From an uncultured Prevotellaceae bacterium (GTDB lineage Bacteria; Bacteroidota; Bacteroidia; Bacteroidales; Bacteroidaceae): 45,952 nt of DNA. Of this stretch, positions 26,680-43,865 are shown piece by piece. The notes beneath the pieces were generated by a model. It searched no databases. It was not told the DNA's origin and worked only from the letters and a program-made list of their open reading frames with translations. Each line of letters opens with the position of its first letter. The first letter of the stretch is position 1. Where the stretch lies: contig ONXQ01000005.1 in assembly GCA_900321835.1 (NCBI GenBank), positions 1 to 45,952 on the forward strand, given 5' to 3'. The translations under genes and the position numbers were made by a program.

Positions 26680-26950
26680 CGAACAAAAAAGGCAACAGCG
26701 GTTGACCTGACACGCGAACAATATTCATACCCTTAAGCCGGGATAAAGGATCGATCGGGATACTCATCAAATTACAATCGAAAACCGAGAACGCTTTGCA
26801 TATCAATGGCGGGCCACGCCCTCCCTCGGGAAGGTAACCTTGAGTCGGTGGATTACAAAGATATGCGAGCACTCAAATCTTATCTGCTCGGAGTTTCATC
26901 ACATCTCCTCCCGGCTTTTCCCATAAAGGAGGCAGCACCGCTGCCTCCTT
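26680..26950 (+). ncRNA. candidate structured non-coding transcript upstream of tRNA-Ser (class not recognised)
   Basis: TATCTTTG -7 box at 26667-26674; no credible ORF; 9-bp long-range pairing AAGCCGGGA (26735-26743) with TCCCGGCTT (26909-26917); perfect 10-bp terminal hairpin AAGGAGGCAG-caccg-CTGCCTCCTT (26926-26950). Confidence 0.3.
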
Positions 26951-26986: not shown

Positions 26987-27073
26987 GGAAAGTTGCCGGA
27001 GTGGTCGATCGGGCCGCACTCGAAATGCGGTGACCGGGTAACTGGTCCGGGGGTTCGAATCCCTCACTTTCCG
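26987..27073 (+). tRNA. tRNA-Ser (anticodon CGA), long variable arm
   Basis: Acceptor GGAAAGT/ACTTTCC, D-arm GCCGGAGTGGTCGATCGGGC, anticodon stem-loop CCGCA-CTCGAAA-TGCGG, variable arm TGACCGGGTAACTGGTCCGG, T-arm GGGGTTCGAATCCC. Confidence 0.9.
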
Positions 27074-28447: not shown

Positions 28448-29502
28448 AGTTCTACGTTATTGGCATTACAGACCATCCGCAGCCGTGGTTTCCTCCCGAG
28501 ACATCACCGTGCCGCTTGATGCGGTGTTTGAACAGTATCGCACCCACGACGAAATCATCGTCTTTGCCTCGGGCGACCCACTTTTCTTCGGCTTTGCCGC
28601 CACGTTGCAACGCCGTCTGCCCGAGGCCCGACTGCAGGTGTTTCCTGCGCCCAATTCCTTGCAAATGCTGGCCCATCGCTGCCTGATTCCCTACGACGAC
28701 ATGCACATCGTGTCGCTCACGGGTCGTCCGTGGCACGAACTGGACCGTGCGCTGATGAGCCACACTGCGAAAATCGGAGTTCTGACCGACCGCCAGCACA
28801 CTCCGACGACCATTGCGCAGCGGCTGATGGACTATGGCTACGGGGACTACACGATGTGGGTAGGCGAACACCTCGGCAATCCGCAGCAGGAACGGGTCGT
28901 AAGCCTGTCGCTCAAGGAGGCAGCCAGCGCGACATTCGATTTGCCCAACTGCCTCATTCTCTGGGCAAGAAACGGACTTCCGCCACGCCGCATGGGCATT
29001 CCCGACGCTGAGTTTGAACTGCTCGACGGCCGCGAACGCATGATTACGAAGATGCCCATCCGCCTGCTTTCGCTCCAAGCCCTCGAGCACCGGCAGCGTG
29101 TCCATTGAAGCCGCGCTGCAGTTTCCCCACCTGCACATCCATTCGTTTGAAGTGCGGGAAGAAGGCCGGCGCCTGATGGACGTGAACACACACCGCTTCG
29201 GTGCCGTCGGCATCGAAGTGAGCATCTGCGATTTCCTCAGCAAAGACCTCACCGCCCTGCCTCGTCCCGACGCCGTCTTCATCGGCGGCCATGGCGGTCG
29301 GCTGAAAGAGATGATGACGCGAATCTGCGGCGTACTCACTGTCGGAGGCTGCATCGTCATGAACAGCGTGACGGAGCAGAGCCGGCAGGACTTCGAAGCC
29401 GCCTGCGACGCCCTTCGCCTCAGCCGTTGTCCCTCCCTGCACGTTGCACTCAACGACTACAACCCCATCGACATTCTGAAGACGGTGAAAAACCAGCCCT
29501 GA
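28444..29502 (+). pseudogene. cbiET: cbiE-cbiT (cobL) precorrin-6Y C5,15-methyltransferase (decarboxylating), disrupted twice
   Basis: MKFYVIGITDHPQPWFPPE (frame of 28444) jumps to DITVPLDAVFEQY...VFASGDPLFFGF (frame of 28371) at about 28498-28500. ...MITKMPIRLLSLQALE jumps to (S)TGSVSIEAALQFPHLHI...DAVFIGGHGG (frame of 29098) at about 29085-29089. The expected intervening conserved segments are missing. Confidence 0.7.
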
Positions 29503-29566
29503 CCCACCCCACGCACCTGCTGAAGCCACCACTCGGGTCCGCCATCAGGACTTGCTTTCGACTTTT

Positions 29567-29631
29567 AAGTGCTTAAAAAAAAGTTTTAAGTGCATAAAAA
29601 TACATTTTCAAGTGCTTAGAAATTCATTTCA
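29567..29631. repeat. 3-unit tandem array, 21/22-bp period, AAGTGCTT variant
   Basis: Units at 29567, 29588, 29610: AAGTGCTTaaaaaaaagtttt / AAGTGCATaaaaatacattttc / AAGTGCTTagaaattcatttc. Confidence 0.85.
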
Positions 29632-29647
29632 ACCAAGACATAGAGAC

Positions 29648-31374
29648 ATGAAGACAGCAGTGATACAAGTGACAGAAGCCGGCGCACAGGTGGCGCAGGT
29701 GGTCTGTCAGGAAACAGGCGGAATGCTCGTTCCCCGCTCCGACCTCGGCCGGCACTGGGCCGACGTGGAGGCCGTCGTGTTCATCGGCGCAATGGGCATC
29801 TGTGTCCGCACCATTGCGCCCTTGCTGACGGACAAGCACACCGACCCCGCCGTCGTGTGCATCAGCAGCGACGGCAGCCATGTGATTTCCGTCGTTTCGG
29901 GGCACGTCGGCGGTGCCAACCAACTGGCCGGACAACTGGCCGCTGCCCTGCCCGGGGCCGAGGCCGTGGTCACGACCCAGAGTGACACACAAGGACTCTG
30001 GGCCCTCGACACGCTGGCACAGCGCTATGGCTGGACTGCCGAGGTGGAGGGTGCGACGATGAATGACGCCATCTTCCGCTTTGTCGGCAAAGAGCCTGTG
30101 GCACTGCTGATTGAGACGTGCGATGCAGGCAGCGACTATCTGCAGCGCACCTGTCCGCCACACGTTCGCCGCATCCAGTCGGAGAGCGAAGTGGATACAG
30201 CCAGCGACCGTCTGCTCATTGCCGTCACTCCGCGCCAGATTCACAGCAGCGTTCCCGTGCTCCAGTACGTTCCGAAGACGCTCTGCCTGGGCATCGGGCT
30301 GGCCCATCAGGCAGAACCTGCCGAGGCGATTCTCCGTCAAATCATGCAGTGTGTCGCCGACAGCGGATGGCTGTGGCAGGGTGTGCGCACCGTTGCGACC
30401 ATCGACGTGAAACGCGACGAACCCGTCGTGAAACTGCTGCAAAGTCAAGGCTTCGACGTTCAGTTCTACACGGCAGACCAACTCGCCGCTGTGCCTGTGC
30501 CCACGCCCAGCGATGTCGTCGCCAGCCATGTGGGGACACCGAGTGTGAGTGAGGCCGCAGCCATTCTTGCAGCCGACGGAGGCCCGCTGGTCGTCAGCAA
30601 GAAAAAAGGTGAAAAATTCACCGTTGCCGTGGCCTCTTTGCCGCTGATGCAGGAGGTGGGCAGTGGGCATGGCTTCATCGAAATTGTCGGAGCCGGCCCC
30701 GGCGATCCCGACCTCATCTCCGTGCGCGGCCGTCGAATGCTCGAACGTGCCGACCTCATCCTCTACGCAGGTAGTCTGGTACCACGCGAACTCACGCTGT
30801 GCGCCAAACCAGAGGCCGTGGTGCGTTCCTCCGCCTCGATGTCGCTGGAGGAACAGTGTGCGCTGATGAAGGAATATTACGACCGAGGCTGCTTCATCGT
30901 CCGTCTGCACACGGGCGACCCCTGCATCTTCGGTGCCATCCAGGAGCAGATGGCCTACTTCGACGCCCACCACATGCACTACCACATCACACCATACCCG
31001 AACGCTGTCAGACCATCATCCTGACGCGCGGCGAAGGCCGTACGCCCATGCCCGAACGCGAAAAACTCCATCTGCTGGCCCGCAGCCGCTCGACCATGTG
31101 CATCTTCCTCAGTGCTGCCATCGTCGATGACGTGCAGCAGCAACTCCTCGCCGAATACCCGCCTGAGACGCCTGTCGCCGCCTGCTACCATCTGACGTGG
31201 CCCGACCAGCGCATCTATCGGGGTCAACTCAAAGACCTGGCCAGCATCGTCCACGACCATCATCTCACACTGACCACCATGCTCGTGGTCGGCGATGCGA
31301 TTGACAACCGCCAGGGCCTCTCCGAACTCTATTCGGCACACTTTTCACACTTGTTCAGAAAAGCCAGCGAATGA
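29648..31374 (+). pseudogene. cbiGF: cbiG-cbiF fusion: cobalt-precorrin-5A hydrolase / precorrin-4 C11-methyltransferase, disrupted in the cbiF part
   Basis: CbiG part looks intact (ATG 29648, MKTAVIQVTEAG...). CbiF starts with IEIVGAGPGDPDLISVRG...RLHTGDPCIFGAIQEQ...MHYHITP, then stops. The continuation IPERCQTIILTRGEGRTPMPEREKL...TMLVVGD is in the frame of 30799. The PGVSSF...AAAA segment expected between them is absent (junction about 30992-30997). Confidence 0.7.
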
Positions 31375-33242
31375 TACTCCTCTTTGGTGGCACGACCGAA
31401 GGACGCAAGGCTGCAGAGGTGCTCGAAGAGGCCGGCAGCACGTTCTACTACTCGACCAAGACGGGCGAGCAGGACATCGCCCTGCACCACGGGCTGCGCA
31501 TCGACGGAGCGATGGATGCCGAGGCGATGCAACGTTTTTGTCAGGAACAGGAAATCCGCCTCATCATCGACGCCGCCCATCCCTTTGCGCAGCAGTTGCA
31601 CCAGACCATTGCCGACGTCGCCCAGCGCCTACGCCTTCCCGTCGTCCGCTACGAACGCATCTTTCCGCCGCGCGACGAACACTTCATCTGGATTGACCGC
31701 TACGAAGATTTGCGCACGCTGCGGCCTGCCACCGTTCTTGCCACAACCGGCGTACAGAGCATTTCGCACCTGAAACCCCTCGAGACCGCAGGCTTCCGCT
31801 TCCTGTACCGCATTTTGCCCCGCGAGAGTTCTGTGGCACTGGCAAAAGCGCAGGGTGCTGCCGACGACCAACTTTGCTACTATCACGACGACGAGGACGA
31901 AGTCGCCCTGCTCCGCAGGCTCCGTCCCGACATCCTCCTGGTGAAGGAAAGCGGTGAAAGCGGTGGTTTCAACAAAAAAACGCAAGCCGCTCGTTCACTG
32001 GGTATTACGGTTGTCGCGCTGAAACGCCCTGCAACGCCTTTCACCTTCCACTGCGTCAACGGTCCGCACGGACTTCGCCGCCGTGTCGAGCAGTTGCTAC
32101 CCGACTTTTTTTCCCTGCACAGCGGCCTGACCACAGGCACGTGTGCCACCGCAGCCGCCGTAGCAGCAACGATTCGTCTGACGCGGGGTGAAACACCCTC
32201 CCAGGTGCCTGTCATCCTGCCCGACGGCGAAACCATCTCCGTCGGCGTCGGCTATGGCAACGACTATGCTTTCTGCATCAAGGACGGCGGCGACGACCCC
32301 GACGTGACCGACGGGATTGAAATAAGGGCAAAGGTGGAGGCACAAGCCCCCCTCCACCTCCCCCCCGAAGGGGGAGGGCCTCAAAAACAGCCTGTAGATA
32401 AGGAATCCTCCCCACTCGGGGGGGAGTTAGAGGGGGGCCAGGTCTTTATCACTGGTGGCGAAGGCATCGGAACCATCACCCTCCCCGGCTTTGACTATCC
32501 CCCTGGTTCGCCAGCCATCAACCGTGTACCCCGGGAGATGATAATGACTAACTTAAAGGCACTCCCCTTATGTGGGAGAGATGGAGGGGGGCCGTTCACC
32601 ATCACCCTCTCCGTCCCCAACGGTGCAGAGATAGCCCGCCGCACGTTCAATCCGCGCCTGGGCATCGAGGGCGGCATCAGCATCATTGGGGTGAGCGGCA
32701 TTACGAAACCCTTCAGCGAAGAGGCCTTCGTCGCCTCCATCCGCAAATGTATGGAAGTGGCAAAGGCCAGTATGCCCGCCGAAGGCTGTCTGGTCATCAA
32801 CAGCGGCGCGAAGAGCGAGGCCTACGTCAAGGCGCGTTTTCCCGAACTGCCTGCACCCTGTTTCGTGCAGTATGGCAACTACATCGGTGCCACACTCCGC
32901 ATCGCGGCCGAACTCGCCATTCCCCGTGTCACGCTTTGCGTGATGCTGGGCAAGGCCGTCAAACTCGCTGCCGGCAACCTCGACACCCACAGCCGCCGCA
33001 CGACAATGGACGTCGGCTTTGTCCTCTCCATGCTCACCGAGGCAGGGTGCAGCGACGACGTCATCGCCGCAGCCCACGGTCTCACGCTGGCCCGCGACCT
33101 CTGGACCCTCCTGCCGCCCGACCGTCTCGAACCTTTTGCCCGCGTCGTCATCCGCCATTGTCACCACCATTGCGACCCGGTTTTGCCCGACGGCCAACTC
33201 GACATCCTGCTCATCGACGAGGAAGGACATATATACGCCTGA
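31371..33242 (+). CDS. cbiJD: cbiJ-cbiD fusion: cobalt-precorrin-6A reductase / cobalt-precorrin-5B C1-methyltransferase
   Basis: CbiJ: MILLFGGTTEGR, IIDAAHPFA, LVKESGESGG. CbiD: SGLTTGTCATAAAVAA, KDGGDDPDVT, PAINRVPREMI, FNPRLGIEGGISIIGVSGI. ATGA overlap with the preceding ORF. The frame is open but contains the inserted repeats listed below. Confidence 0.8.
   Translation: MILLFGGTTEGRKAAEVLEEAGSTFYYSTKTGEQDIALHHGLRIDGAMDAEAMQRFCQEQEIRLIIDAAHPFAQQLHQTIADVAQRLRLPVVRYERIFPPRDEHFIWIDRYEDLRTLRPATVLATTGVQSISHLKPLETAGFRFLYRILPRESSVALAKAQGAADDQLCYYHDDEDEVALLRRLRPDILLVKESGESGGFNKKTQAARSLGITVVALKRPATPFTFHCVNGPHGLRRRVEQLLPDFFSLHSGLTTGTCATAAAVAATIRLTRGETPSQVPVILPDGETISVGVGYGNDYAFCIKDGGDDPDVTDGIEIRAKVEAQAPLHLPPEGGGPQKQPVDKESSPLGGELEGGQVFITGGEGIGTITLPGFDYPPGSPAINRVPREMIMTNLKALPLCGRDGGGPFTITLSVPNGAEIARRTFNPRLGIEGGISIIGVSGITKPFSEEAFVASIRKCMEVAKASMPAEGCLVINSGAKSEAYVKARFPELPAPCFVQYGNYIGATLRIAAELAIPRVTLCVMLGKAVKLAAGNLDTHSRRTTMDVGFVLSMLTEAGCSDDVIAAAHGLTLARDLWTLLPPDRLEPFARVVIRHCHHHCDPVLPDGQLDILLIDEEGHIYA
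32347..32439 (+). repeat. in-frame GC-rich hairpin insertion inside cbiD
   Basis: ccCCTCCacCTCCCCCccgaaGGGGGAGGgcc tcaaaaacagcctgtagataaggaat CCTCCCCactcgGGGGGAGttagaggggggcc; encodes APLHLPPEGGGPQKQPVDKESSPLGGELEGG. The AT-rich centre is atypical for this CDS. Confidence 0.6.
32560..32593 (+). repeat. second copy of the CTCCCC...GGGAG...GAGGGGGGCC motif inside cbiD
   Basis: cACTCCCCttatgtGGGAGagatggaggggggcc resembles 32407-32439. It is preceded by rare-codon AT-rich DNA (atgataatgactaacttaaag). Confidence 0.45.
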
Positions 33243-33350
33243 GCGCTCAGAAATTTTCGTCTGAGCGCTCAGACGTTTTCCTCCGAGCGCTCAGACGTTT
33301 TCTTCCGAGCGCTCAGACGTTTTTTTCCAAGCGCTCAGATGTATATAGAA
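33238..33350 (-). repeat. 22-bp-phased GAGCGCTC element, reverse orientation, 5 units
   Basis: Cores at 33241, 33263, 33285, 33307, 33329. The first core overlaps the cbiJD stop codon (ccTGAgcgctc). Head ...tttttttccAAGCGCTCagatgtatatag. Confidence 0.92.
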
Positions 33351-33434: not shown

Positions 33435-33442
33435 TAACTTTG
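33435..33442 (+). promoter_or_regulatory. -7 promoter box TAACTTTG for the riboswitch-led operon
   Basis: ttcgTAACTTTGcag just upstream of the riboswitch. Confidence 0.6.
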
Positions 33443-33454
33443 CAGCGCAAAGAG

Positions 33455-33650
33455 AACAACGGTAGTGCCGCGCCGTCACGACGGCGGTGCGAAGCACGCA
33501 AGGGAATGCGGTGTGAATCCGCAGCTGTACCTGCAACTGTAATCCTCTTCTTTTAAGGCTGTCCATCCATGCCACTGACCCTCTGGGACGGGAAGGCGGA
33601 CAGACCGGGGAAAGCCAGGAGACCTGCCGTAAGAAACGAATCTCTTCCAA
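33455..33650 (+). promoter_or_regulatory. cobalamin (B12) riboswitch
   Basis: Conserved core AAGGGAATGCGGTGTGAATCCGCAGCTGTACCTGCAACTGTAA, GCCACTG (33571-33577) and B12 box AGCCAGGAGACCTGCC (33613-33628); about 50 nt upstream of the TBDT start. Confidence 0.9.
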
Positions 33651-33699
33651 ACAGAAAAAGCGCACGCTCAGGAAAAAGCGCAGCGAAAAGCAGACTTAA

Positions 33700-35835
33700 A
33701 TGAGGATACGAAGAGTCGCCTTAGGGCTGGCATTGCTATGCTGTGCCGCTATGGGTCGCAGTCAGGACGTATTGCTCAGCGACACACTGGAAACGGTGGT
33801 CGTCACGGGCACCGGCACGAAGCACCTGCTGAAGGACGCTCCCGTCGAGACGGAGGTCATCAGCGGACGCACACTGCGTCAGTATGGCGGACAAAGTCTC
33901 GAGGACATCCTGGGAAGCCTGTCGGCCTCGTTCGCCTTCAACGAGGGCGACATGGGCAGCCAGATGCAACTGAACGGCCTCGGCAACTCGTACATTCTCG
34001 TACTCATCGACGGAAAGCGCCTGACGGGCGACGTGGGCGGACAGAACGACCTTTCGCTCATCGACCCCCACAACATCGAGCGCATCGAAATCGTGAAGGG
34101 TGCATCGAGCGCCCTCTACGGCAGCGACGCCATCGCCGGCGTGGTCAACATCATCACCCGCCGCCACGAAGGAGGCATCATGCTGGAGAACTCGACACGC
34201 TACGGCTCGTACAACGACGTCCGCCAGCACAACAGCGTCGGCCTGGCATGGGGAAAGTGGAAGAGCCTCACGGGGTTTCAACTCCAGCATTCGGACGGAT
34301 GGCAGAACACATCGGTCGAAAACACACCGAGCAGCGCCACACCCGTCACCGACTCGCGCAGCATGACGGTCAACCGCCACACAAGTTGGCAACTCTCGGA
34401 GCAACTCACCTTCGCTCCCAGCGAAGACCTTGAGTTCTACCTCGCCGGCACGCTGCACAGAAAGGGCATCTACCGTCCGAAGGGAAAATATCCCAAATAC
34501 GACGTCAAGACCTTTGACCTCAAGTATGAAAATGCCTCTGCAGCCCTGGGCGGACAGTGGCGGACAGAACGCGGCGACCTGCTGACCCTCGACATCGACT
34601 GGGCGCAACACGCCTACTACCACGCCTTCACTTCGACGACGCTGACCGAGGGCTTCGATGCCGACGGACTTCTGATTCTGGACTTCCCCTATTTCGCCGG
34701 ACAACGTCTGCTGCAGAGCAACCAGCAACGCACCACCGCCCAACTGAAGGGCGTGTTCAACTTCCCAAATCACAGACTGTCGGCCGGCCTCGAGGCGCGT
34801 TTCGACCACCTGAAGGCTCCGACCAGCCTTGCCTCACGCACGGCATCCGACAACACCGAGGCGCTGTACGTGCAGGACGAATGGTCACAGTTGCACTGGC
34901 TTTGGCTCACAGGCGGCCTGCGCCTGTGCCGCAACGAAGGCTTTGGCTGGCGGCTGACGCCCAAACTCTCGGCGATGGCCCGACTGGGCAACGTGCGTCT
35001 GCGTGCTACGTGGAGTCAGGGTTTCAAGACCCCTACGCTGAAAGAGATGAACTACCGCTACATCCGCGAGATGACGAACATCGTGATGTACCTGGGCAAC
35101 GAAAATTTGAAACCGCAGACGTCGAACTATTTCTCGCTTGGAGGCGAACTGACGCACCACGGCTTCAACTTCACAGTCACAGCCTACGTGAACCGCCTGG
35201 ACAACATGATTGCACTGGCGACGGTTTCCACCAGCGCTGCACCTGCAGCCTACCGCGAGCAGTACGGCGAAATGCTGAACAAGGTGCGCCGCTACGAAAA
35301 CATGGAGGATGCACGGACGATGGGCGTGGACATCAGCGCAAGTTATACGCGAAAGGAGTGGACAGCCGGTGCCAGTTACAGTTACCTCGACACGAAGGCA
35401 CACGTCTATGACTCGGACGCGGAACGGCTCGAGCGCGTTGTCATTGACGGCATGGCGCGTCACAAGGGCAATGTTTTTGTGACGTGGGAACATCGTTTCT
35501 CTCCCTCCTATGCACTGGGGCTCGGGCTGTACGGCCGTATGTCGAGCCGGCGCTTCTATGCCCTCGACGGCAACGGTCGTCCGTTCCAGATCTGGCGGTT
35601 GACGACGTCGCACAACCTGGGGCACAGCCGCACGATGACCTACCGGCTGGAGGCGGGCATCGACAACATCTTCAACCATGTGGACCGCACGCCTCACGGC
35701 CTGCATCTGGGCACGACCTCGCCGGGCACGACTGTGTTTGCCACGCTGACCGTGCGTTTCAAGACCAACAAGTCACTTAAATTTTCCAATAAACATAAGT
35801 CTAACTCTAAAAATCAAAACGATGAAGAAGATTAA
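33700..35835 (+). CDS. TonB-dependent receptor (BtuB-like, riboswitch-controlled)
   Basis: Signal peptide; TonB-box-like ETVVVTGT; plug motifs LNGLGNSYILVLIDGKR, IERIEIVKGASSALYGSDAIAGVVNIIT; barrel ends ...TVFATLTVRF followed by a 24-aa extension. Confidence 0.85.
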   Translation: MRIRRVALGLALLCCAAMGRSQDVLLSDTLETVVVTGTGTKHLLKDAPVETEVISGRTLRQYGGQSLEDILGSLSASFAFNEGDMGSQMQLNGLGNSYILVLIDGKRLTGDVGGQNDLSLIDPHNIERIEIVKGASSALYGSDAIAGVVNIITRRHEGGIMLENSTRYGSYNDVRQHNSVGLAWGKWKSLTGFQLQHSDGWQNTSVENTPSSATPVTDSRSMTVNRHTSWQLSEQLTFAPSEDLEFYLAGTLHRKGIYRPKGKYPKYDVKTFDLKYENASAALGGQWRTERGDLLTLDIDWAQHAYYHAFTSTTLTEGFDADGLLILDFPYFAGQRLLQSNQQRTTAQLKGVFNFPNHRLSAGLEARFDHLKAPTSLASRTASDNTEALYVQDEWSQLHWLWLTGGLRLCRNEGFGWRLTPKLSAMARLGNVRLRATWSQGFKTPTLKEMNYRYIREMTNIVMYLGNENLKPQTSNYFSLGGELTHHGFNFTVTAYVNRLDNMIALATVSTSAAPAAYREQYGEMLNKVRRYENMEDARTMGVDISASYTRKEWTAGASYSYLDTKAHVYDSDAERLERVVIDGMARHKGNVFVTWEHRFSPSYALGLGLYGRMSSRRFYALDGNGRPFQIWRLTTSHNLGHSRTMTYRLEAGIDNIFNHVDRTPHGLHLGTTSPGTTVFATLTVRFKTNKSLKFSNKHKSNSKNQNDEED

Positions 35836-36925
35836 GTTGCTCGTCATGGCACTGGCTGCCATGATGTTGTCGGCAGGATTCACGTCCTGCAGCGACAACG
35901 ACGACGACACCATGTCGAACATGGAACGTTACCAACAGGAAGTGGAGAACACCGTACGTGCCGAGAAGGCGCACAAGAAAGCGCTGCTGCTCGTGGCCTT
36001 CGGCTCGACCTGGCAGCAGGCCTACGATGCTTTCGACCTGACCCGTCAGGAGTATCAGAAGGCATTCCCCGACTACGACGTTTTCCTCTCCTTCTCGTCG
36101 GCCATCTGCATCAACCGTGCAGCCGCAGGCGAGAACACGGCCAAGCGTTCTTTCTACGAACCCATGTACTGGCTCGAGGCTTTCGGCCGTGTGCAGTATG
36201 AGGAAATCATCGTGCAGTCGATGCAGGTGATTCCCGGCGAAGAGTTCAGCCGCGTGGTGAACGCCATGAAGGACTTCGGCAACAACAAACTCGGCGACCT
36301 GGACGATGCCTACATGAAGACCGTGACCCTCAAACTGGGTATGCCGCTCATGTACACCGAGGACAATGCCAAAGAACTGGCTTCGGCCCTCGACGCCAAC
36401 TTCCACAAGTATGCCGAGATGGGTGCCATGCTGTTCATGGGCCACGGCAACCCCGACGACTACGACACTTACAAGGCCAACGTGCGCTACACACAACTTG
36501 AGACTGCCCTGCAGGCCATCCATCCCAACTATTACGTAGGTACGGTCGATATGGCCGACAACTTCAAGGTGCAGGTGAACAACCGCATGGAGGCCAACGG
36601 CTTTGCTTCGAACGGCAAGGTGTTCTGCGCTCCGCTGATGTCGATTGCCGGCGACCACGCCCACAACGACATGGCCGGCGACGACGACGAATGGGATGAC
36701 GCGATGGCCACTCAGACCGAAGGCGAAGCCGAGGACGTAAGTTGGAAGAAATACTTCGGCCACAAGGGCTACACCATCGAGGAGACACCTTACTACACCG
36801 ACAACGGCGAAGACGCCCTCGTGAAGGGTCTGCTGGAGTACAAGAACATCCGCGACCTGTACATAAAGCACACCCAGGCGGCCGAAGTGGTTGACTTCTA
36901 CCACTCGATGTACCCCGAGGAGTAA
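35822..36925 (+). CDS. surface lipoprotein with CbiK-type (class II chelatase) fold; IhtB-like
   Basis: Lipobox LSAGFTSC followed by the acidic run SDNDDD. CbiK-like blocks LLLVAFGSTW, MLFMGHGNP, PLMSIAGDHAHNDMAG. Confidence 0.7.
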   Translation: MKKIKLLVMALAAMMLSAGFTSCSDNDDDTMSNMERYQQEVENTVRAEKAHKKALLLVAFGSTWQQAYDAFDLTRQEYQKAFPDYDVFLSFSSAICINRAAAGENTAKRSFYEPMYWLEAFGRVQYEEIIVQSMQVIPGEEFSRVVNAMKDFGNNKLGDLDDAYMKTVTLKLGMPLMYTEDNAKELASALDANFHKYAEMGAMLFMGHGNPDDYDTYKANVRYTQLETALQAIHPNYYVGTVDMADNFKVQVNNRMEANGFASNGKVFCAPLMSIAGDHAHNDMAGDDDEWDDAMATQTEGEAEDVSWKKYFGHKGYTIEETPYYTDNGEDALVKGLLEYKNIRDLYIKHTQAAEVVDFYHSMYPEE

Positions 36926-36944
36926 GCGCCCCGGCGCTACTCGC

Positions 36945-37045
36945 GCGCGTATATATACGTCTGAGCGCTCGGACGAAACGCTCTGAGCGCTCAGACGAAA
37001 ACTTCCGAGCGCTCAGACGTTTTTTTCCAAGCGCTCGGAAACCGA
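36945..37045 (-). repeat. 22-bp-phased GAGCGCTC element, reverse orientation, 4 units
   Basis: Cores at 36963, 36985, 37007, 37029; left end is the palindrome CGTATATATACG (36948-36959); head ...tttttttccAAGCGCTCgg. Confidence 0.92.
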
Positions 37046-37052
37046 AATAGAC

Positions 37053-39143
37053 ATGACAAGAAAAACATGTGATATGTTATTTAAGAAAGTAGGTTTTTTG
37101 ATGGCGGCACTCCTCACGGGGAGTGCTGCCTTTGCGCAAATTCACAAGATGGAACGTGCCGACACGTCGGCCGTGGCACACACCTACGACCTCAACCCCG
37201 TCGTCGTCACAGGCTCGGGCCACCATCAGCGCATGAAGTACACAGCCACGCCCGTCCGTATGCTTTCCTCGCAGGAAATCCGAGAACAGGGCATCACCAC
37301 CTTCGACGCTGCCCTCACACGCATGATGCCCCAGGTGTCGATGGCACCCAACTCGATGGGCACCTTCCTGCGGCTCAACGGACTGGGCAACAAGTACATC
37401 CTCATTCTGGTGAACGGACAGAAACTGTCGGGCGACATCTCGAACAATGTTGACCTCAACCGCATCAACATGGCACGCGTGAAGCGCATCGAGGTGCTCG
37501 ACGGAGCAGCCTCGTCGCTCTACGGCAGCGATGCCATCGCCGGCGTCATCAACATCATCACCGACCAGCCCACACAGCAACTGGTGAGCGTGATGAGCGA
37601 CACCCGAGTGTCGGGCAAGGGCCAACTCACCGAGTCGGTCAACCTCGACATCCACACCCACGGCTTCGGTTCCTACACCTCCTTTGTCCACGACCGGGCC
37701 GACAGTTACCAGACCACGGACCTCGAATACAAGAAAGGCTCCGACACCGAGACCCAGCCGACCATCGCACCCTTCTTCACCGGCTACCGCTCCAACGTGC
37801 TCAGCCAGAAGTTCACCTACAGTCCCAACCGCCACCTGGCGATGAACGCCTACGTGGACTATTCGAACAAAATCACCGACCGTCCCGCGACACGTCCCGA
37901 CATCACCGGCGGCACCGACTACGAGATGCGCTACCGCGGCCTGCGCTACGGCTTTGGCGGCATCTACAAGTTCACACAGCGCAACTCGCTGCAGGCCGAC
38001 CTGACCATCGACCGCTTCCGCTACGGCAAGGAATACGACGTCGAGACGAAGAACAACGCCGTGGGCGACTTTGTCGAGTCGAAACGCCAGCGCACCATCG
38101 AGGGACAACTGAAGGGCGTGCTCGGCCTCACGGCAAACTCGACCACCGTGGTCGGTGCCGACTGGCGCCGCGACAAACTCGTCGCCACGAGCGGCAACAT
38201 CGACCAGACCGCCTACACCCTCGCCGCCTATGCCCAGCACGAAGTGAAGATGTGGGACCTGCTCACAGCCACCGTCGGCCTGCGCTACGACTATCACGAG
38301 AACTTCCACAACCGCCTCACGCCAAAAGCCACACTGATGCTCTCGCCAGGCCCCTTTAACTTCCGTGCCACATGGTCCACAGGCTTCCGTGCCCCAGGCC
38401 TCGACGAACTCTACTACCACTACTACTCCGTCAACCGCGGAAAGCCGCAAATCACCTTCGGCAACAGCAGTCTCGACCCCGAGCGCAGCAACTACTTCGC
38501 CCTCAACGCCGAATACCGCACCCAGACCCTCGCCGTCAGCGTGACCGGCTATGTGAACCGCATCAGCGACATGATCATACGCCAGGACATCCCCGTCGGC
38601 TCGTCCGAACTGACCATGCTGCAGGCCGAATTTCCGGAGATGACGTCGGCCGAGGCCGCCAAACTCGAACGCTACAGCCGCTATGTCAACAGCGACCGCG
38701 GCGACGTCAAAGGTCTGCAAGTGAACGTGTCGGCCAACCTTTTCGATGGTTTCAACCTCTCGGCCAACTACGCCTACACCTATGCCCGGACTGAGAACGC
38801 CGGCGAGTGGAGCGTGCTGGAGCGCAGCATCCGCAACGTGGCAACGCTGGCGGCAAACTACCACCATGCCTGGGGTCACTATGCACTGAACGTCAACCTG
38901 AACGGACGCTTGCAGTCGCGCACCTACTATACCAGTTACGAGAATGCACCGGGCTACGGCATCTGGAACCTGCACACCACGCACACGTTCGATCACCTGC
39001 ATTGGGCCATCATCGAGCCCAGCATCGGTGTTGACAATCTGTTCAACCGGGTCGATCGACGCATCGACTCCAGCAACCGCAAGTACGCCCTCTACAGCCC
39101 CGGACGTATGATCGTCGTCGGTCTGCGCGTACGTTTCCAGTAA
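37053..39143 (+). CDS. TonB-dependent receptor (paralog of 33700..35835)
   Basis: LNPVVVTGS, LNGLGNKYILILVNGQK, IKRIEVLDGAASSLYGSDAIAGVINIIT, C-terminal VVGLRVRFQ. The start may instead be ATG 37074. Confidence 0.85.
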   Translation: MTRKTCDMLFKKVGFLMAALLTGSAAFAQIHKMERADTSAVAHTYDLNPVVVTGSGHHQRMKYTATPVRMLSSQEIREQGITTFDAALTRMMPQVSMAPNSMGTFLRLNGLGNKYILILVNGQKLSGDISNNVDLNRINMARVKRIEVLDGAASSLYGSDAIAGVINIITDQPTQQLVSVMSDTRVSGKGQLTESVNLDIHTHGFGSYTSFVHDRADSYQTTDLEYKKGSDTETQPTIAPFFTGYRSNVLSQKFTYSPNRHLAMNAYVDYSNKITDRPATRPDITGGTDYEMRYRGLRYGFGGIYKFTQRNSLQADLTIDRFRYGKEYDVETKNNAVGDFVESKRQRTIEGQLKGVLGLTANSTTVVGADWRRDKLVATSGNIDQTAYTLAAYAQHEVKMWDLLTATVGLRYDYHENFHNRLTPKATLMLSPGPFNFRATWSTGFRAPGLDELYYHYYSVNRGKPQITFGNSSLDPERSNYFALNAEYRTQTLAVSVTGYVNRISDMIIRQDIPVGSSELTMLQAEFPEMTSAEAAKLERYSRYVNSDRGDVKGLQVNVSANLFDGFNLSANYAYTYARTENAGEWSVLERSIRNVATLAANYHHAWGHYALNVNLNGRLQSRTYYTSYENAPGYGIWNLHTTHTFDHLHWAIIEPSIGVDNLFNRVDRRIDSSNRKYALYSPGRMIVVGLRVRFQ

Positions 39144-39159
39144 ATCATCTTATGAACAA

Positions 39160-39210
39160 GGAATGAAGAATGACGGATGCCCGCTTGTCGTTCTTCATTC
39201 CATTTTTTTT
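39160..39210 (+). terminator. GAATGAAGAAT-type hairpin plus T-run
   Basis: GGAATGAAGAATGACG-gatgcccgct-TGTCGTTCTTCATTCC then attttttttc; ends 8 nt before the next start codon. Confidence 0.6.
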
Positions 39211-39217
39211 CAAACCC

Positions 39218-39724
39218 ATGAAGCAACTCTACACCAGGACAGGCGACAGCGGCCTGACCAGCCTTCGCGAGGGCGTCAGGGTCGAGAAGGACGACCTGCG
39301 CATCGAAGTGAACGGACAGGTGGACCACCTCAACGCCCTGCTCGGTCTGGTACGCAGCGACGAGCGCACAGCAGCCCTGCTGCCGACCGACGACGCTGCA
39401 CTCATCAGGCGGGTGCAGACAGAACTGATGTCGGTCATGAGCCACATCGCCACGCCCAGCGGCAGTGTCAATCCCCGTCCGCTCCATGTCGGCGAACTGA
39501 CTGCTGAGATGGAGCAAGCCATCGACCGCCACACCGACGGGCGCACCACAGGCTTCACCATTCCCGGCGACACACCGGCGGCGGCGTTGCTCCATGTGGC
39601 CCGCACCCAGACACGCACCGTCGAGCGCCGGCTCTGGACCCTGCATCGCGAGCATCCGCTGTCGCCCAGCGTGCTCACCTTCTTCAACCGCCTCAGCGAC
39701 TACCTTTTTTCACTCACCCTCTGA
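39218..39724 (+). CDS. pduO: PduO-type ATP:cob(I)alamin adenosyltransferase
   Basis: Start moved to MKQLYTRTGDSGLTSL; VNGQVDHLNALLG, ARTQTRTVERR, FFNRLSDYLF. Confidence 0.85.
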   Translation: MKQLYTRTGDSGLTSLREGVRVEKDDLRIEVNGQVDHLNALLGLVRSDERTAALLPTDDAALIRRVQTELMSVMSHIATPSGSVNPRPLHVGELTAEMEQAIDRHTDGRTTGFTIPGDTPAAALLHVARTQTRTVERRLWTLHREHPLSPSVLTFFNRLSDYLFSLTL

Positions 39725-39738
39725 CTCTTTTTCCAACC

Positions 39739-40755
39739 ATGCTCTACGGACACGGCGACGACACCTTCCGCTTCCCCCACCTGCGTGCCAACTTCAGTTC
39801 GAACATCTGCACAGAGGCCGACCTTGCCCCCCTCAAGGCGCATCTGGCCACACGGCTCTCCGCCATCGAGAACTATCCGGAGCCGGCAGCCGACTCGCTC
39901 GCTGCCTGCATCGCCCGGCTGCACGGCATCCAGCCCGACGAGGTGCTGGTGACCAACGGCGCCACCGATGCCATCTACCTCATTGCACAGGCTTTTGCCA
40001 CGGATGGTACCTATTTCTCGACCGACGAACCCACTTTCAGCGAATATGCCGACGCCTGCCTTTTGTTCGGATTGAAACCTCAGACAGACGCGGACTCTTC
40101 TGCAGCCGTTCGCTGGCTGTGCAACCCGAACAACCCCGACGGCCGCATCTACACGTCCGAGCAAGTGCGACGGGAGGCACAGCGCAGCACGTGGCTCGTC
40201 GTCGATCAGTCGTACGAAGACTACACCGCAGCCCCTCTGCTCACCGCTCGCGAGGCGCTCGGTGTGCCCAACCTGCTGCTGCTCCATTCGCTCACCAAGA
40301 GTTACGCCGTACCGGGGCTGCGCATCGGCTATGTCACTGCGCCGGCTCCGCTCATCGCCCGTCTCAAGTCCGTCAGCCGTCCGTGGGCCGTCAATGCCCT
40401 GGCGGTCGAGGCCGGGAAATGGCTGCTCAGCCACGATGTACGTGCCGTGCCCGACCTCGATGCCCTGTTGGCAGAGACCCAGCGGCTGGCCAACGCACTT
40501 TCGGAGGTGCCTCACCTCCACGTCAGCCCCACCGCCACGACCTTCATGCTCGTCTGCTGCGACACGTTCACGGCGGCCCAACTGAAGGAGCGGCTGGCCT
40601 CGGAACACGGTCTGCTCATCCGCGATGCCTCCAATTTCCCCACGCTCACTCCCCATCACTTCCGTGTGGCAACCCAGCGGCCCGACCAGAACGATGCACT
40701 TGTCGCTGCCCTGCGCACCCTTCTCTCCCCGTCTGCAGACGAACGAAAGTTCTGA
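39739..40755 (+). CDS. cobD: threonine-phosphate decarboxylase (class I/II aminotransferase fold)
   Basis: MLYGHGDD, NFSSN, YPEP, CNPNNPDG, HSLTKSYAVPGLRIGY (PLP lysine motif). Confidence 0.85.
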   Translation: MLYGHGDDTFRFPHLRANFSSNICTEADLAPLKAHLATRLSAIENYPEPAADSLAACIARLHGIQPDEVLVTNGATDAIYLIAQAFATDGTYFSTDEPTFSEYADACLLFGLKPQTDADSSAAVRWLCNPNNPDGRIYTSEQVRREAQRSTWLVVDQSYEDYTAAPLLTAREALGVPNLLLLHSLTKSYAVPGLRIGYVTAPAPLIARLKSVSRPWAVNALAVEAGKWLLSHDVRAVPDLDALLAETQRLANALSEVPHLHVSPTATTFMLVCCDTFTAAQLKERLASEHGLLIRDASNFPTLTPHHFRVATQRPDQNDALVAALRTLLSPSADERKF

Positions 40756-40820
40756 GTGCTTGAAAAAAAAGTTTTAAGTGCTTGAAAATTTACTTTTACG
40801 TGCTTGAAAGTTTGTTTTTA
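40754..40820. repeat. 3-unit tandem array, 22-bp period, (G/A)AGTGCTT variant
   Basis: Units at 40754, 40776, 40798: GAGTGCTTgaaaaaaaagtttt / AAGTGCTTgaaaatttactttt / ACGTGCTTgaaagtttgttttt; the first unit overlaps the cobD stop. Confidence 0.88.
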
Positions 40821-40833
40821 CCTACTTGTTTCG

Positions 40834-40841
40834 TAACTTTG
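40834..40841 (+). promoter_or_regulatory. -7 promoter box TAACTTTG
   Basis: 19 nt upstream of ATG 40861. Confidence 0.5.
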
Positions 40842-40860
40842 CACAAAGATTAGAAAACAA

Positions 40861-41400
40861 ATGGAGGTAGTCCTTATTCGCCACACCAGCGTCGCAGTCC
40901 CGAAAGGCACGTGCTACGGACAGACCGACGTGCCCGTTGCCGACACGTTTGAACAGGAGGCTGCGGCCACCCGTGCCGCCCTCGGCCGCTACGGCCAGTT
41001 CGACGCCGTCTTCTCGTCGCCCCTCACCCGTGCCCGCCTGCTGGCAGCAGCCTGCGGCTACGAACAGCCCGTCATCGACGACCGTCTGAAGGAGATGTCG
41101 ATGGGCGATTGGGAGATGAAGCAGTTTGACCTCATCGACGACCCGCACCTGAAGGAGTGGTACGACAACTACATCGAAGAGCGCACCAGCGGCGGAGAGA
41201 GTTTCCAGGACGTCTATCGGCGCGTGGCAGCCTTTCTTGACGAAGTGCGCCAACGGCCCGACTACACCCGCGTGGCCGTCTTTGCCCACGGCGGCGTGCT
41301 GATGTGTGCAGGCCTGTATGCCGGGCTCTACACCGCCGACGATATGTTCTACCACCTCGTCCCCTACGGCGGCATTCTGGAAATAAAAATTGAGAATTAG
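40861..41400 (+). CDS. cobC: alpha-ribazole phosphatase (histidine phosphatase family)
   Basis: MEVVLIRHTSV...CYGQTDVP, SSPLTRA, FAHGGV. Confidence 0.8.
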   Translation: MEVVLIRHTSVAVPKGTCYGQTDVPVADTFEQEAAATRAALGRYGQFDAVFSSPLTRARLLAAACGYEQPVIDDRLKEMSMGDWEMKQFDLIDDPHLKEWYDNYIEERTSGGESFQDVYRRVAAFLDEVRQRPDYTRVAVFAHGGVLMCAGLYAGLYTADDMFYHLVPYGGILEIKIEN

Positions 41401-41408
41401 TCAACACG

Positions 41409-41981
41409 ATGAGCAGAGTCATCTTGATCACAGGCGGACAGCGCTCGGGCAAGAGCGAATGGGCAGAGCGGATGGCGCTCTCGCTCAGCGACAGCCCCGT
41501 CTATGTGGCCACGGCCCATGTGTGGGACGAAGAGTTCCGCCAGCGGGTGCGCCGTCATCAGGAGCGTCGTGGACCTCAGTGGACAAACATCGAGGAAGAG
41601 ATGCGGCTGGCCGACCACGACCTGACGGGACGTGTGGCGGTGATTGACTGTGTGACACTTTGGCTCACCAATTTCTTCTTCCACCTTGACAGCAACACCG
41701 AACAGGCCCTCGCCGCCGCCAAGCGCGAATTCGACCGCCTCGCCGAGCAGGATGCGACCCTCATCTTTGTAACCAACGAAATCGGCTGTGGCGGCGTAAG
41801 CGACAATGCCCTTCAGCGCCGATTCACCGACCTGCAAGGCTGGATGAACCAGCACATCGCACAGCGAGCCGACGAGGTGTGGTGGATGGTGTCGGGCCTG
41901 CCCGTACAGATTAAGCATGAGAACATTCAACATACAACAGCCCGACAGCAGGATGCTGGCGGACATTCGCAAGAAGATTGA
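41409..41981 (+). CDS. cobU: bifunctional adenosylcobinamide kinase / adenosylcobinamide-phosphate guanylyltransferase
   Basis: ILITGGQRSGKSEWAE P-loop, HQERRGPQWTNIEE, IDCVTLWLTN, VTNEIGCGGV; the 3' end overlaps cobT by 65 nt. Confidence 0.85.
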   Translation: MSRVILITGGQRSGKSEWAERMALSLSDSPVYVATAHVWDEEFRQRVRRHQERRGPQWTNIEEEMRLADHDLTGRVAVIDCVTLWLTNFFFHLDSNTEQALAAAKREFDRLAEQDATLIFVTNEIGCGGVSDNALQRRFTDLQGWMNQHIAQRADEVWWMVSGLPVQIKHENIQHTTARQQDAGGHSQED

Positions 41982-42954
41982 CAACCTGAACAAGCCGAAA
42001 GGCTCGCTCGGACGCCTCGAAACGCTCGCCGAGCAAATCTGCCTGGTGCAGCAAACCCTGTCGCCGCGCCTCACCCACCCCAGCCACCTGCTACTCGGAG
42101 CCGACCACGGCATCGAGCGCGAGGCAGTGAGCGTGAGTCCGCGCGAAGTCACGTGGCAGCAGATGCTTAACTTCACCCACGGCGGCGGCGGAGTCAACAT
42201 GTTCTGCCGTCAGCACGGCTTCAAGTTGCGCATCGTAGATGTCGGCGTCGATTACGACTTCACGGGCGTTGATGGGATTCTGGACAGAAAAGTGGCGCGT
42301 GGAACACGCAATTTTCTCCACGAGGCTGCCATGACACAGGAAGAGTACGACCGCACCATCGACATCGGTGCAGCGCTCTGCGACGACTGCTTCGCCGAAG
42401 GCTGCAACGTGCTGAGCATCGGCGAGATGGGCATAGCCAACACCTCGCCGTCCAGCATCTGGATGAGCCTCTTTTGCCACATCCCGCTCGACGAGTGCAT
42501 AGGTGCCGGAGCAGGACTCGACACACCGGGCATCCGTCACAAGCGCGAGGTGCTCAGACAGGCTGTGGACAACTATCAGGGACAGGGCACTGCCGCCGAC
42601 CTCATCCGCTACTTCGGCGGATTCGAGATGGTAGCCGCCATCGGAGCCATGCTTCGTGCAGCCAAGCATCGTATGCTGGTGCTGGTCGATGGATTCATCA
42701 TGTCGGCCTGTGCCCTCGCCGCCATCCAGTTGGAACCGGAGGTGCGCGACTACATGATCTTTGCCCACTGCGGCGACGAGAGCGGCCATCGGCGTATGCT
42801 CGATGCCATGCAGGCCCAGCCCCTGCTCAGTCTTGGCCTGCGGCTGGGAGAAGGAACGGGAGCGCTCTGTGCCTACCCCATCGTCGATTCGGCTGTGCGG
42901 ATGATCAACGAAATGAACAACTTCGACAATGCGCGTATTACGAAATATTTTTGA
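41917..42954 (+). CDS. cobT: nicotinate-nucleotide--dimethylbenzimidazole phosphoribosyltransferase
   Basis: IDNLNKPKGSLGRLE, GADHGI, GEMGIANTS, LRLGEGTGA. Confidence 0.9.
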   Translation: MRTFNIQQPDSRMLADIRKKIDNLNKPKGSLGRLETLAEQICLVQQTLSPRLTHPSHLLLGADHGIEREAVSVSPREVTWQQMLNFTHGGGGVNMFCRQHGFKLRIVDVGVDYDFTGVDGILDRKVARGTRNFLHEAAMTQEEYDRTIDIGAALCDDCFAEGCNVLSIGEMGIANTSPSSIWMSLFCHIPLDECIGAGAGLDTPGIRHKREVLRQAVDNYQGQGTAADLIRYFGGFEMVAAIGAMLRAAKHRMLVLVDGFIMSACALAAIQLEPEVRDYMIFAHCGDESGHRRMLDAMQAQPLLSLGLRLGEGTGALCAYPIVDSAVRMINEMNNFDNARITKYF

Positions 42955-43711
42955 CCGTCTGTGGGCGGCTCTCATCTTTTTCACACGTCTGCCGTTGTGG
43001 CGGCTTTATCAGCCACCACAGGAGTGCTACAACTCGGTCGTTGAGTTCTGGCCGCTGACGGGATGGCTCACAGGCGGCGTGATGGCCGTCGTCATCGGGG
43101 TGGGCAGCCAGTGGCTGCCCTTGTCGGTGAGCGTCGTGCTGGCCATCGCTGCGCGCCTCTTGCTGACGGGCGGCCTTCACGAGGACGGCCTGGCCGATTT
43201 CTTTGACGGAATGGGCGGCGGAGGCAGCGACCGCAGCCGTGTGCTGGCCATCATGAAAGACTCTCACATCGGCACCTTCGGCGTTCTCTCGCTCATTGTC
43301 TATTTTCTGTTGCTGTGGACCGTGCTGACCTCCATGCCAGCCGTCATGGCCGCCTTCTGCATCTTCGTCGCCGACCCGTATGCCAAAATGCTGAGCGGAC
43401 AACTCATCCTCATGCTGCCCTACGCACGGACGGAGGAGACGGCGAAGAACCGCACCGTCTATCGTCGCTATTCGTGGAAGGCAGGACTGAGCCTGCTGGT
43501 GCAGGGACTGCTGCCGATGGGCCTCCTCGTTTATGTGTCGATGGATGTAGACTTCACCTGGGTGCTCATGCTGCCGGCCGTCGTCTTCTACCTGCTCTAC
43601 CTTTTCATTCGCCACCGTCTGCACGGCTACACGGGTGACTGCTGCGGCGCCGTCTGCCTGATGGTCGAGTTGACGACGTGCCTGGCCATGCTGCTCTGGG
43701 GGACCATGTGA
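42929..43711 (+). CDS. cobS: adenosylcobinamide-GDP ribazoletransferase (cobalamin synthase)
   Basis: ALIFFTRLP, GGLHEDGLADFFDG, multi-TM, 260 aa. Confidence 0.85.
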   Translation: MRVLRNIFDRLWAALIFFTRLPLWRLYQPPQECYNSVVEFWPLTGWLTGGVMAVVIGVGSQWLPLSVSVVLAIAARLLLTGGLHEDGLADFFDGMGGGGSDRSRVLAIMKDSHIGTFGVLSLIVYFLLLWTVLTSMPAVMAAFCIFVADPYAKMLSGQLILMLPYARTEETAKNRTVYRRYSWKAGLSLLVQGLLPMGLLVYVSMDVDFTWVLMLPAVVFYLLYLFIRHRLHGYTGDCCGAVCLMVELTTCLAMLLWGTM

Positions 43712-43772
43712 ACCACACCCGTTTTTCCTGAATCCCATAGTCCCACACAGAGGGAAGTTTTGCCACTTGTCC

Positions 43773-43865
43773 GAGCGCTTGGAAAAAAACGTCCGAGCGC
43801 TCGGACGTTTTCGTCTGAGCGCTCAGAGATTTTTTTCTGAGCGCTCAGCCCTATATACAGACTTT
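43773..43865 (+). repeat. 22-bp-phased GAGCGCTC element, 4 units
   Basis: Cores at 43773, 43795, 43817, 43839. The head gccacttgtccGAGCGCTTGGaaaaaaacgtc matches the 7367 copy. Tail cagccctatatacagac. Lies between convergent cobS and cbiB. Confidence 0.92.

Follow-up and report, generated by a model that had tools for sequence, protein, structure and literature searches.

Chelatases of the CbiK family are known from both sides of the cytoplasmic membrane. The Salmonella enterica enzyme (1QGO) is a cytoplasmic sirohydrochlorin cobaltochelatase without a signal peptide, and CbiK(P) of Desulfovibrio vulgaris (2XVX/2XVZ), a bacterium that also has a cytoplasmic CbiK, is an exported class-II cobaltochelatase homologue that is soluble in the periplasm, is not a lipoprotein and has no TonB-dependent transporter (TBDT) as a partner. 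Such genes can be under B12 control, as in Desulfovibrio, where a B12 element controls cbiK-cbiL and btuCDF (PMC545781). The Iht system of Porphyromonas gingivalis, comprising IhtA, IhtB (FetB) and IhtCDE, has been described as serving iron and haem acquisition, with transcription that is unaffected when iron or haem is limiting (PMC12094164), and in vitro FetB acts as a chelatase for cobalt and manganese and does not dechelate haemin (PMC13065792). Here we describe an operon from a rumen Prevotella-type bacterium, located in a 45,952-nt stretch of DNA that we call the window (contig ONXQ01000005.1 of assembly GCA_900321835.1, a 2.38-Mb metagenome-assembled genome, 87% complete, referred to below as the window genome). 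As the original prediction from the sequence had stated, a cobalamin riboswitch is followed by a TBDT gene (TBDT1), a gene for a CbiK-family lipoprotein and a second TBDT gene (TBDT2), and the three open reading frames and their domains were confirmed with Pfam (Table 1). Our preferred reading, to which we assign a probability of about 0.45, is that the lipoprotein acts outside the cytoplasm as a chelatase or tetrapyrrole handler and, together with TBDT1, serves the import of a cobalt-tetrapyrrole precursor of the ring. Because it is the sole chelatase homologue found in a genome that appears unable to start the ring, the operon is the best candidate there for importing a half-made B12 ring.

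The distribution of the family carries much of this argument. An even set of 401 Bacteroidales genomes contains 26 with cbiD, of which 20 yielded a CbiK homologue; the 375 that lack cbiD yielded none. The chelatase homologue is linked to ring synthesis and not to B12 scavenging generally; since cobamide scavenging is obligatory for most Bacteroidetes (PMC6461909), such a restriction is not expected of a general B12-capture protein. The cbiD-bearing genomes can be separated further by the presence of ALAD and SUMT, taken together as the capacity to make precorrin-2. Eleven genomes encode both, and nine of these have a chelatase without a signal peptide, which is a short CbiX in seven and a signal-less CbiK in two (G235 and G286); CbiK homologues in this group are exported in five genomes, signal-less in two and absent from four. 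The remaining 15, the window genome included, encode neither enzyme, and a signal-less chelatase was found in 0 of 15, true CbiX among them in none; CbiK homologues occur in 13 of these genomes, and all copies are exported, either as lipoproteins or with a signal-peptidase-I-type signal. The census genomes are related and are not independent samples, and the precorrin-2 trait varies inside three families (f18, f30 and f99), so that some of the contrasts are independent. Three genomes of a single genus (g101; G117, G232 and G322) hold the full de novo route, with ALAD, SUMT and a short cytoplasmic CbiX, together with a riboswitch-TBDT-CbiK lipoprotein-TBDT unit. As these genomes keep both the cytoplasmic CbiX and the exported CbiK, the role of the exported form differs from that of the cytoplasmic chelatase.

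As encoded, the pathway in the window's own genus would begin at CbiH, that is, at the level of cobalt-precorrin-3. The window genome and two near-complete genomes of the genus (G010 and G014) carry cbiH, C, E, T, G, F, J, D and A, and neither cbiL nor SUMT was found in any of the three; ALAD, sought within the genus in the window genome alone, was likewise not found there. Specifically, a Pfam search of the ring genes that precede the operon in the window gave no chelatase, cbiL or SUMT gene, and apart from the lipoprotein no CbiK or CbiX match was found in the window genome. One TP_methylase match on another contig of this genome (C121) was considered as cbiL or cobA and rejected, as it resembles the rRNA methyltransferase RsmI (first 40 residues only).

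The lipoprotein matches the CbiK profile PF06180 over positions 1-260 of 262, and the blocks from which a class-II chelatase had been predicted are all present, namely LVAFGSTW at residues 56-63, FMGHGNP at 205-211 and SIAGDHAHND at 274-283. Against the NCBIfam CbiK equivalog NF047852 it scores 103 bits, where the cut-off is 400. Structure prediction, which had been suggested as a check, gave a confident AlphaFold2 model (predicted local distance difference test score, pLDDT, 93.4) in which the lipoprotein has the two-domain alpha/beta class-II chelatase (CbiK) fold. The top Foldseek matches, with template-modelling (TM) scores of 0.87-0.90, are FetB 9B86 (0.90 on the target), CbiK(P) 2xvz (0.87 on the target) and Salmonella CbiK 1qgo, so the comparison with IhtB and the periplasmic Desulfovibrio CbiK that had been drawn beforehand did point to the nearest solved relatives. 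Identity to CbiK(P) is about 25%. His208 and His279 do not vary across a 122-sequence family alignment and correspond to His145 and His207 of Salmonella CbiK, a member of the same Pfam family, aligning with the FMGHG and AGDHA motifs of 1qgo; about 38 other core positions are common to the lipoprotein clade and the signal-less, cytoplasmic CbiKs. The position of Salmonella Glu175, the third of the metal site, is occupied by Asp (Asp243) in 100% of the clade, in contrast to Glu in 96% of signal-less CbiKs, a conservative yet clade-specific change. His281, beside the catalytic His279 (GDHAHND), shows conservation in the long lipoprotein clade alone and could provide an extra axial or metal ligand, and further features of the clade are an N-terminal helix and short insertions. 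The earlier suggestion that the protein binds or captures tetrapyrroles is compatible with these data.

The acidic lipoprotein export signal that had been proposed is conserved, as the signal peptide, the lipid-bearing Cys of the FTSC lipobox and the acidic run are kept in 15 of 15 orthologues from related genomes, with CSDDDD in nine and variants such as CSDSDD, CSDDEE and CSSDDD in the remainder. A CS(D/E)2 signal, meaning the lipobox Cys and a Ser followed by acidic residues at +3 and +4, drives surface exposure in Bacteroides (PMC6222051). The window lipoprotein reads C-S-D-N-D-D-D, with Asn at +4 where the motif expects an acidic residue, and judging from its signal it is probably surface-exposed. 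These observations bear on the possibility that the protein is an ordinary cytoplasmic cobaltochelatase whose signal peptide is an artefact of start-codon choice, or whose translation begins internally at Met31 or Met34. Such an enzyme would be at home in a genome that has ring genes and no other chelatase homologue, its catalytic residues are intact, and the two in-frame methionines precede the folded domain. We nevertheless consider it highly improbable, given a lipoprotein signal that is retained in every orthologue, a gene that overlaps one TBDT gene and lies between two across the genus, and a genome in which the enzymes for the cytoplasmic substrate (ALAD or SUMT) were not found. An internally started cytoplasmic isoform was considered as well and was rejected, since Met31 and Met34 are not conserved and are missing in five orthologous loci (L030-L034).

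Comparison with the Iht system shows a closely similar arrangement, in that both in the window genus and in P. gulae a TBDT gene is directly followed by a gene for a CbiK-fold lipoprotein, and FetB (9B86) is the closest solved match of the window lipoprotein (E 3.8e-27), with both catalytic histidines kept. In P. gulae DSM 15663 (NZ_KB899178.1, L091:357-596) we observed a cobalamin riboswitch directly 5′ of ihtA (75.1 bits, E 1.9e-17), followed by ihtA, an ihtB whose FetB product is 94% identical to the FetB query, and the BtuFCD-type importer genes ihtCDE. A cobalamin riboswitch therefore heads both operons, and the ‘iron-haem transport’ operon looks B12-regulated; no mention of a riboswitch before the iht operon was found in the searchable literature. 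The two systems also differ in several respects. The window lipoprotein is 74 residues longer than FetB, to which it is about 34% identical, and carries a strongly acidic signal where FetB has CSSNNKD; the two proteins fall into separate clades, each with 100% support in a quick maximum-likelihood (IQ-TREE) tree, and Asp243 and His281 are specific to the clade of the window lipoprotein. The window operon encodes a further TBDT but lacks an ABC importer, a Peripla_BP_2/FecCD pair being located instead on another contig (C32) beside cbiA, and it is embedded in cobamide genes, whereas Iht is described as a haem and iron system. Because the window lipoprotein belongs to a separate clade of long lipoprotein CbiKs, we regard it as a variant of the Iht kind and not as a FetB orthologue.

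This comparison raises the question of whether the lipoprotein handles haem or porphyrins in the way proposed for IhtB/FetB, by binding haem, removing its iron or making Mn-protoporphyrin. FetB is the best match among solved structures by sequence and by fold, TBDT1 shares 39% identity with P. gulae IhtA (TBDT2 shares 32%), and Bacteroidales commonly require external haem. FetB moreover binds porphyrins and is needed for Mn-protoporphyrin IX (PMC13065792). Set against this are the control by a cobalamin riboswitch, here as well as before the P. gulae iht operon, the failure of iht transcription to respond to iron or haem starvation (PMC12094164), the lack of FetB dechelatase activity on haemin (PMC13065792), the placement of the window lipoprotein in another fully supported clade than FetB, and the confinement of the family to genomes with the corrin pathway. 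Taken together, these points make a role in haem or porphyrin handling quite improbable.

BtuB-BtuG, with BtuH, BtuJ and BtuK, offers a second comparison, since there too a riboswitch-controlled TBDT gene is followed by that of a surface lipoprotein with an export signal, and the predicted logic of a lid or capturer is alike. The folds are different, BtuG being a seven-bladed beta-propeller and BtuH/BtuJ a DUF4465 beta-jelly-roll, in contrast to the Rossmann-like two-domain chelatase of the window; the distributions differ likewise, as BtuBG is general in B12-scavenging Bacteroidetes according to the literature, whereas the CbiK lipoprotein was found in ring-pathway genomes only. A literature search for a link between BtuG and CbiK returned no relevant match. 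The original prediction had raised a corrinoid-capture role, in which the lipoprotein would capture finished corrinoids (cobalamin, other cobamides or cobinamide) and pass them to a BtuB-like TBDT as an analogue of BtuG, BtuH or BtuJ with another fold. The B12 riboswitch and the position of the gene right behind a TBDT gene, as btuG stands behind btuB (PMC10404256), agree with such a role, as do the conserved export signal, the cobinamide-salvage genes directly 3′ and the location of His281 beside His279, where it could ligate the cobalt of a corrin. No DUF4465 (BtuJ/BtuH-type) protein was found in the window genome, G010 or G014, and 33465-33645 is the sole cobalamin riboswitch detected in the window genome at its 87% completeness, so that any uptake of complete cobamides would there pass through this operon. 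However, no CbiK homologue occurs in the 375 cbiD-lacking Bacteroidales although most Bacteroidetes scavenge cobamides (PMC6461909), the core is that of enzymes for flat isobacteriochlorins with no visible remodelling for a bulky nucleotide-bearing ligand, and no described B12-binding lipoprotein of B. thetaiotaomicron is chelatase-like. What survives of the proposal is an exported, riboswitch-controlled lipoprotein whose gene overlaps that of TBDT1; the part that concerns finished corrinoids does not sit well with a distribution limited to cbiD-bearing genomes and a conserved chelatase core, and we consider it unlikely. The family restriction and the conserved core point to the handling of a ring precursor or of cobalt, and not of B12 itself.

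The unit is well conserved. The order riboswitch, TBDT1, lipoprotein occurs in 13 of 16 genomes of the window genus, most of which also have TBDT2, and of the 16 related loci scanned, all but L026 gave a riboswitch call at the same position (15 of 16). In the 98% complete genome G010, the riboswitch operon runs on into cbiHC-cbiET-cbiGF-cbiJD with the ring genes intact, and cbiA lies just 5′ of the operon with an adjoining BtuF/FecCD pair. Of 26 CbiK genes in 19 further genomes of Bacteroidales, 23 are preceded on the same strand by a cobalamin riboswitch no more than about 6 kb away, at distances within 350 bp (nine genes), of about 2.4 kb (11) or of 5-6 kb (three); a TBDT gene intervenes in every locus read of the 2.4-kb class and adjoins most of the 26 CbiK genes. 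One such locus (L081, G260:C1:1459000-1474000) consists of a riboswitch, a TBDT2-like gene, cbiL, a TBDT1-like gene, a CbiK lipoprotein gene (377 aa) and a second CbiK gene with an ordinary signal peptide (333 aa), so that cbiL, which encodes the cytoplasmic ring methylase for the step after CbiK, is placed between two TBDT genes. The inner-membrane importers that accompany the CbiK genes are of the Peripla_BP_2/FecCD type, which carries chelates (haem, siderophores, B12) and not free ions. In the window genome itself, genes for a BtuF-like binding protein and an FecCD permease and cbiA stand side by side on contig C32 (L092, G000:C32:3533-7726); the contig stops within cbiA and has the permease gene in two frames, which may be an assembly collapse.

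These loci bear on cobalt scavenging, by which the exported CbiK would bind Co2+ at its His/His/Asp site and deliver it to the TBDT, alone or on a small carrier. The restriction to ring-pathway genomes matches a need for cobalt, no CbiM-type cobalt transporter was found in the five ring-pathway genomes searched, and de novo producers with a cytoplasmic CbiX retain the unit; B12 riboswitches often control cobalt transporters, delta-proteobacteria that use CbiK are without known cobalt transporters (PMC545781), and FetB chelates Co and Mn (PMC13065792). On the other hand, the accompanying importers are of the chelate type and not of the free-ion type, and the entire tetrapyrrole-binding core is conserved, not just the metal ligands. 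Cobalt supply also leaves unexplained why the precorrin-2-less genomes have no cytoplasmic chelatase, which imported free cobalt would need. On this balance we consider cobalt scavenging distinctly unlikely.

The TBDTs had been called paralogous. Both have a plug and a barrel; the term is a loose one for proteins of about 29% identity that belong to two subfamilies, each paired with different CbiK types in other lineages. TBDT1 is the constant neighbour of the lipoprotein gene within the genus, TBDT2 follows that gene in 10 of the 14 long-form loci read, and TBDT2-like genes in other lineages lie 5′ of CbiK homologues of the signal-peptidase-I type. TBDT1 has a signal peptide, a TonB-box-like ETVVVTG, a plug and a barrel that ends at Phe687, after which comes a 24-residue tail rich in Lys, Asn and Ser and ending in DEED (35761-35835); IhtA, by comparison, extends two residues past the equivalent Phe. 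Outer-membrane barrels do not usually continue past their C-terminal aromatic residue in this way, and the start codon of the lipoprotein gene sits within the region that encodes it, the two genes overlapping by 14 nt. Neither TBDT reaches the BtuB equivalog cut-offs, and no TBDT equivalog scored above its NCBIfam cut-off; sequence searches against solved structures gave only generic matches (CirA and the E. coli BtuB plug), with no hint of specificity. Prediction of a complex between residues 25-687 of TBDT1 and 33-367 of the lipoprotein from alignments returned a score of 0.00, which is no answer and speaks neither for nor against a pairing.

The observations described above, on the riboswitch, on the fold and catalytic residues of the lipoprotein, on conserved export signals and gene order and on the genes that occur together, allow an outline of how precursor import might work; that the lipoprotein resides at the surface, what it binds, that it chelates extracellularly and that it touches TBDT1 are the inferred elements. 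The operon would be a B12-repressed outer-membrane gate that supplies an incomplete (‘headless’) corrin-ring pathway, with TBDT1 and the lipoprotein acting as a pair. With an N-terminal lipid as its anchor and an acidic export signal that brings it to the cell surface, the lipoprotein would be a class-II chelatase and would bind an external early B12-branch tetrapyrrole, for example factor II, factor III or another isobacteriochlorin, or a cobalt form of these. Its His208/His279 site would insert cobalt or hold a cobalt complex, which would then be handed to TBDT1 for TonB-driven import and carried into the cytoplasm by the BtuF/BtuC-type importer that is encoded beside ring genes; there CbiH and the later enzymes would complete the corrin, and the products of the downstream genes would add the nucleotide loop. 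TBDT2 may bring in another form, perhaps cobinamide or complete corrinoids.

Several observations weigh against precursor import. The near-complete genomes of the genus have neither cbiL nor SUMT, so cobalt insertion into sirohydrochlorin alone would not reach CbiH, and the cargo must either be at the level of factor III or cobalt-precorrin-3 or be methylated at C20 by another enzyme. As the three g101 de novo producers with a cytoplasmic CbiX retain the unit, precursor import is not strictly required there, and its retention fits cobalt supply at least as well; restriction to ring-pathway genomes would be equally expected for cobalt scavenging, and the kinship among the census genomes applies here too. 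The activity of FetB was measured on a porphyrin analogue and not on an isobacteriochlorin (PMC13065792).

The operon is headed by a predicted Bacteroidetes-type -7 promoter box, for which the consensus is TAnnTTTG, and a TTTG can be read about 25 nt 5′ of it. The riboswitch had been predicted at 33455-33650, and the Rfam match falls within this interval, ending 55 nt before the start of TBDT1. Between the cbiJD stop and the promoter lies an array of GC-rich palindromic units (GAGCGCTCAGACG...) at 33239-33340; a second, similar array is found at 43768-43824, 3′ of cobS. A Bacteroidales-1 (6S-like) RNA (133 bits) and a tRNA at 26739-26922 and 26987-27073 lie just 5′ of the ring-gene block. Downstream, a terminator-like hairpin separates TBDT2 from the adenosyltransferase gene and, judged by its sequence, is possibly a terminator or attenuator that closes the riboswitch-controlled unit. 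Contigs from rumen metatranscriptomes (four studies) carry short stretches nearly identical to the lipoprotein gene and to both TBDT genes, matching 239 nt at 35817-36055 with one mismatch, as well as 156 nt at 36624-36779 and 156 nt at 38036-38191 with none; DNA carry-over is possible, so these matches are not counted as proof of expression, and such contigs cannot give transcript starts, ends or levels, the parts they leave uncovered being uninformative.

Table 1. Features of the riboswitch operon and of the neighbouring cobamide genes, with positions and strands in the window.
Feature	Position	Strand	Basis or remark
Corrin-ring genes cbiH-cbiC, cbiET, cbiG-cbiF, cbiJ-cbiD	27213-33242	+	Pfam; upstream of the operon
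Bacteroidetes-type -7 promoter box (predicted), TAACTTTG	33436-33443	+	Letters compared with the consensus; just 5′ of the riboswitch
Cobalamin riboswitch aptamer	33465-33645	+	Rfam RF00174, full model 1-189, 81.1 bits (exceeds the gathering threshold of 31.5 bits), E 1.5e-18
TBDT1, 711 aa	33700-35835	+	Pfam Plug and TonB_dep_Rec_b-barrel (PF07715 and PF00593)
CbiK-family lipoprotein, 367 aa	35822-36925	+	Pfam PF06180, E 4.7e-42
Signal peptide (residues 1-22) and lipobox FTSC with lipid Cys23	35888-35890 (Cys23)	+	
Acidic run SDNDDD after Cys23	35891-35908	+	
His208	36443-36445	+	
Asp243	36548-36550	+	
His279	36656-36658	+	
His281	36662-36664	+	Clade-specific
TBDT2, 696 aa	37053-39143	+	Pfam Plug and TonB_dep_Rec_b-barrel (PF07715 and PF00593)
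17-pair hairpin with GAATGAA-type arms, then a T run	39160-39209	+	Terminator-like scan; between TBDT2 and the adenosyltransferase gene
Late cobamide genes: PduO-type adenosyltransferase, CobD, CobC, CobU, CobT, CobS	39170-43711	+	Pfam
cbiB, cobQ (cbiP)	43867-45949	-	Pfam

A bacterium with the late ring pathway and without the starting tetrapyrrole was reportedly recognised as early as 2000, by Roper, in P. gingivalis. ‘Tetrapyrrole precursor salvagers’ have since become a recognised class for which no route of uptake is known; they were named in 2018 by Shelton et al., who noted that P. gingivalis is without the steps to precorrin-2 (PMC6461909). The operon described here is a concrete candidate for such a route, as it combines a B12-repressed transporter with the cell's only chelatase homologue, which is extracytoplasmic. 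More tentatively, we speculate that the step by which anaerobic B12 synthesis is first committed to cobalt, the insertion of the metal, may take place outside the cytoplasm in many Bacteroidales. There an exported CbiK, on the surface or in the periplasm, would metalate or specifically hold an isobacteriochlorin scavenged from microbes nearby, and the cobalt complex would enter through a TBDT dedicated to it. If true, this would provide the entry route for the precursor salvagers and resolve the puzzle of the headless corrin pathway in P. gingivalis; the ‘iron-haem transport’ system Iht would really be a B12-branch system, and the well-studied Iht/FetB of this oral pathogen would be reinterpreted. 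Should the cargo instead be finished corrinoids or cobalt, the lipoprotein would still represent a new fold among the surface acquisition proteins of Bacteroidetes. If precursor import is confirmed, genome-based prediction of B12 production in the rumen and gut would change, with many Prevotella being conditional producers that depend on cross-fed intermediates.

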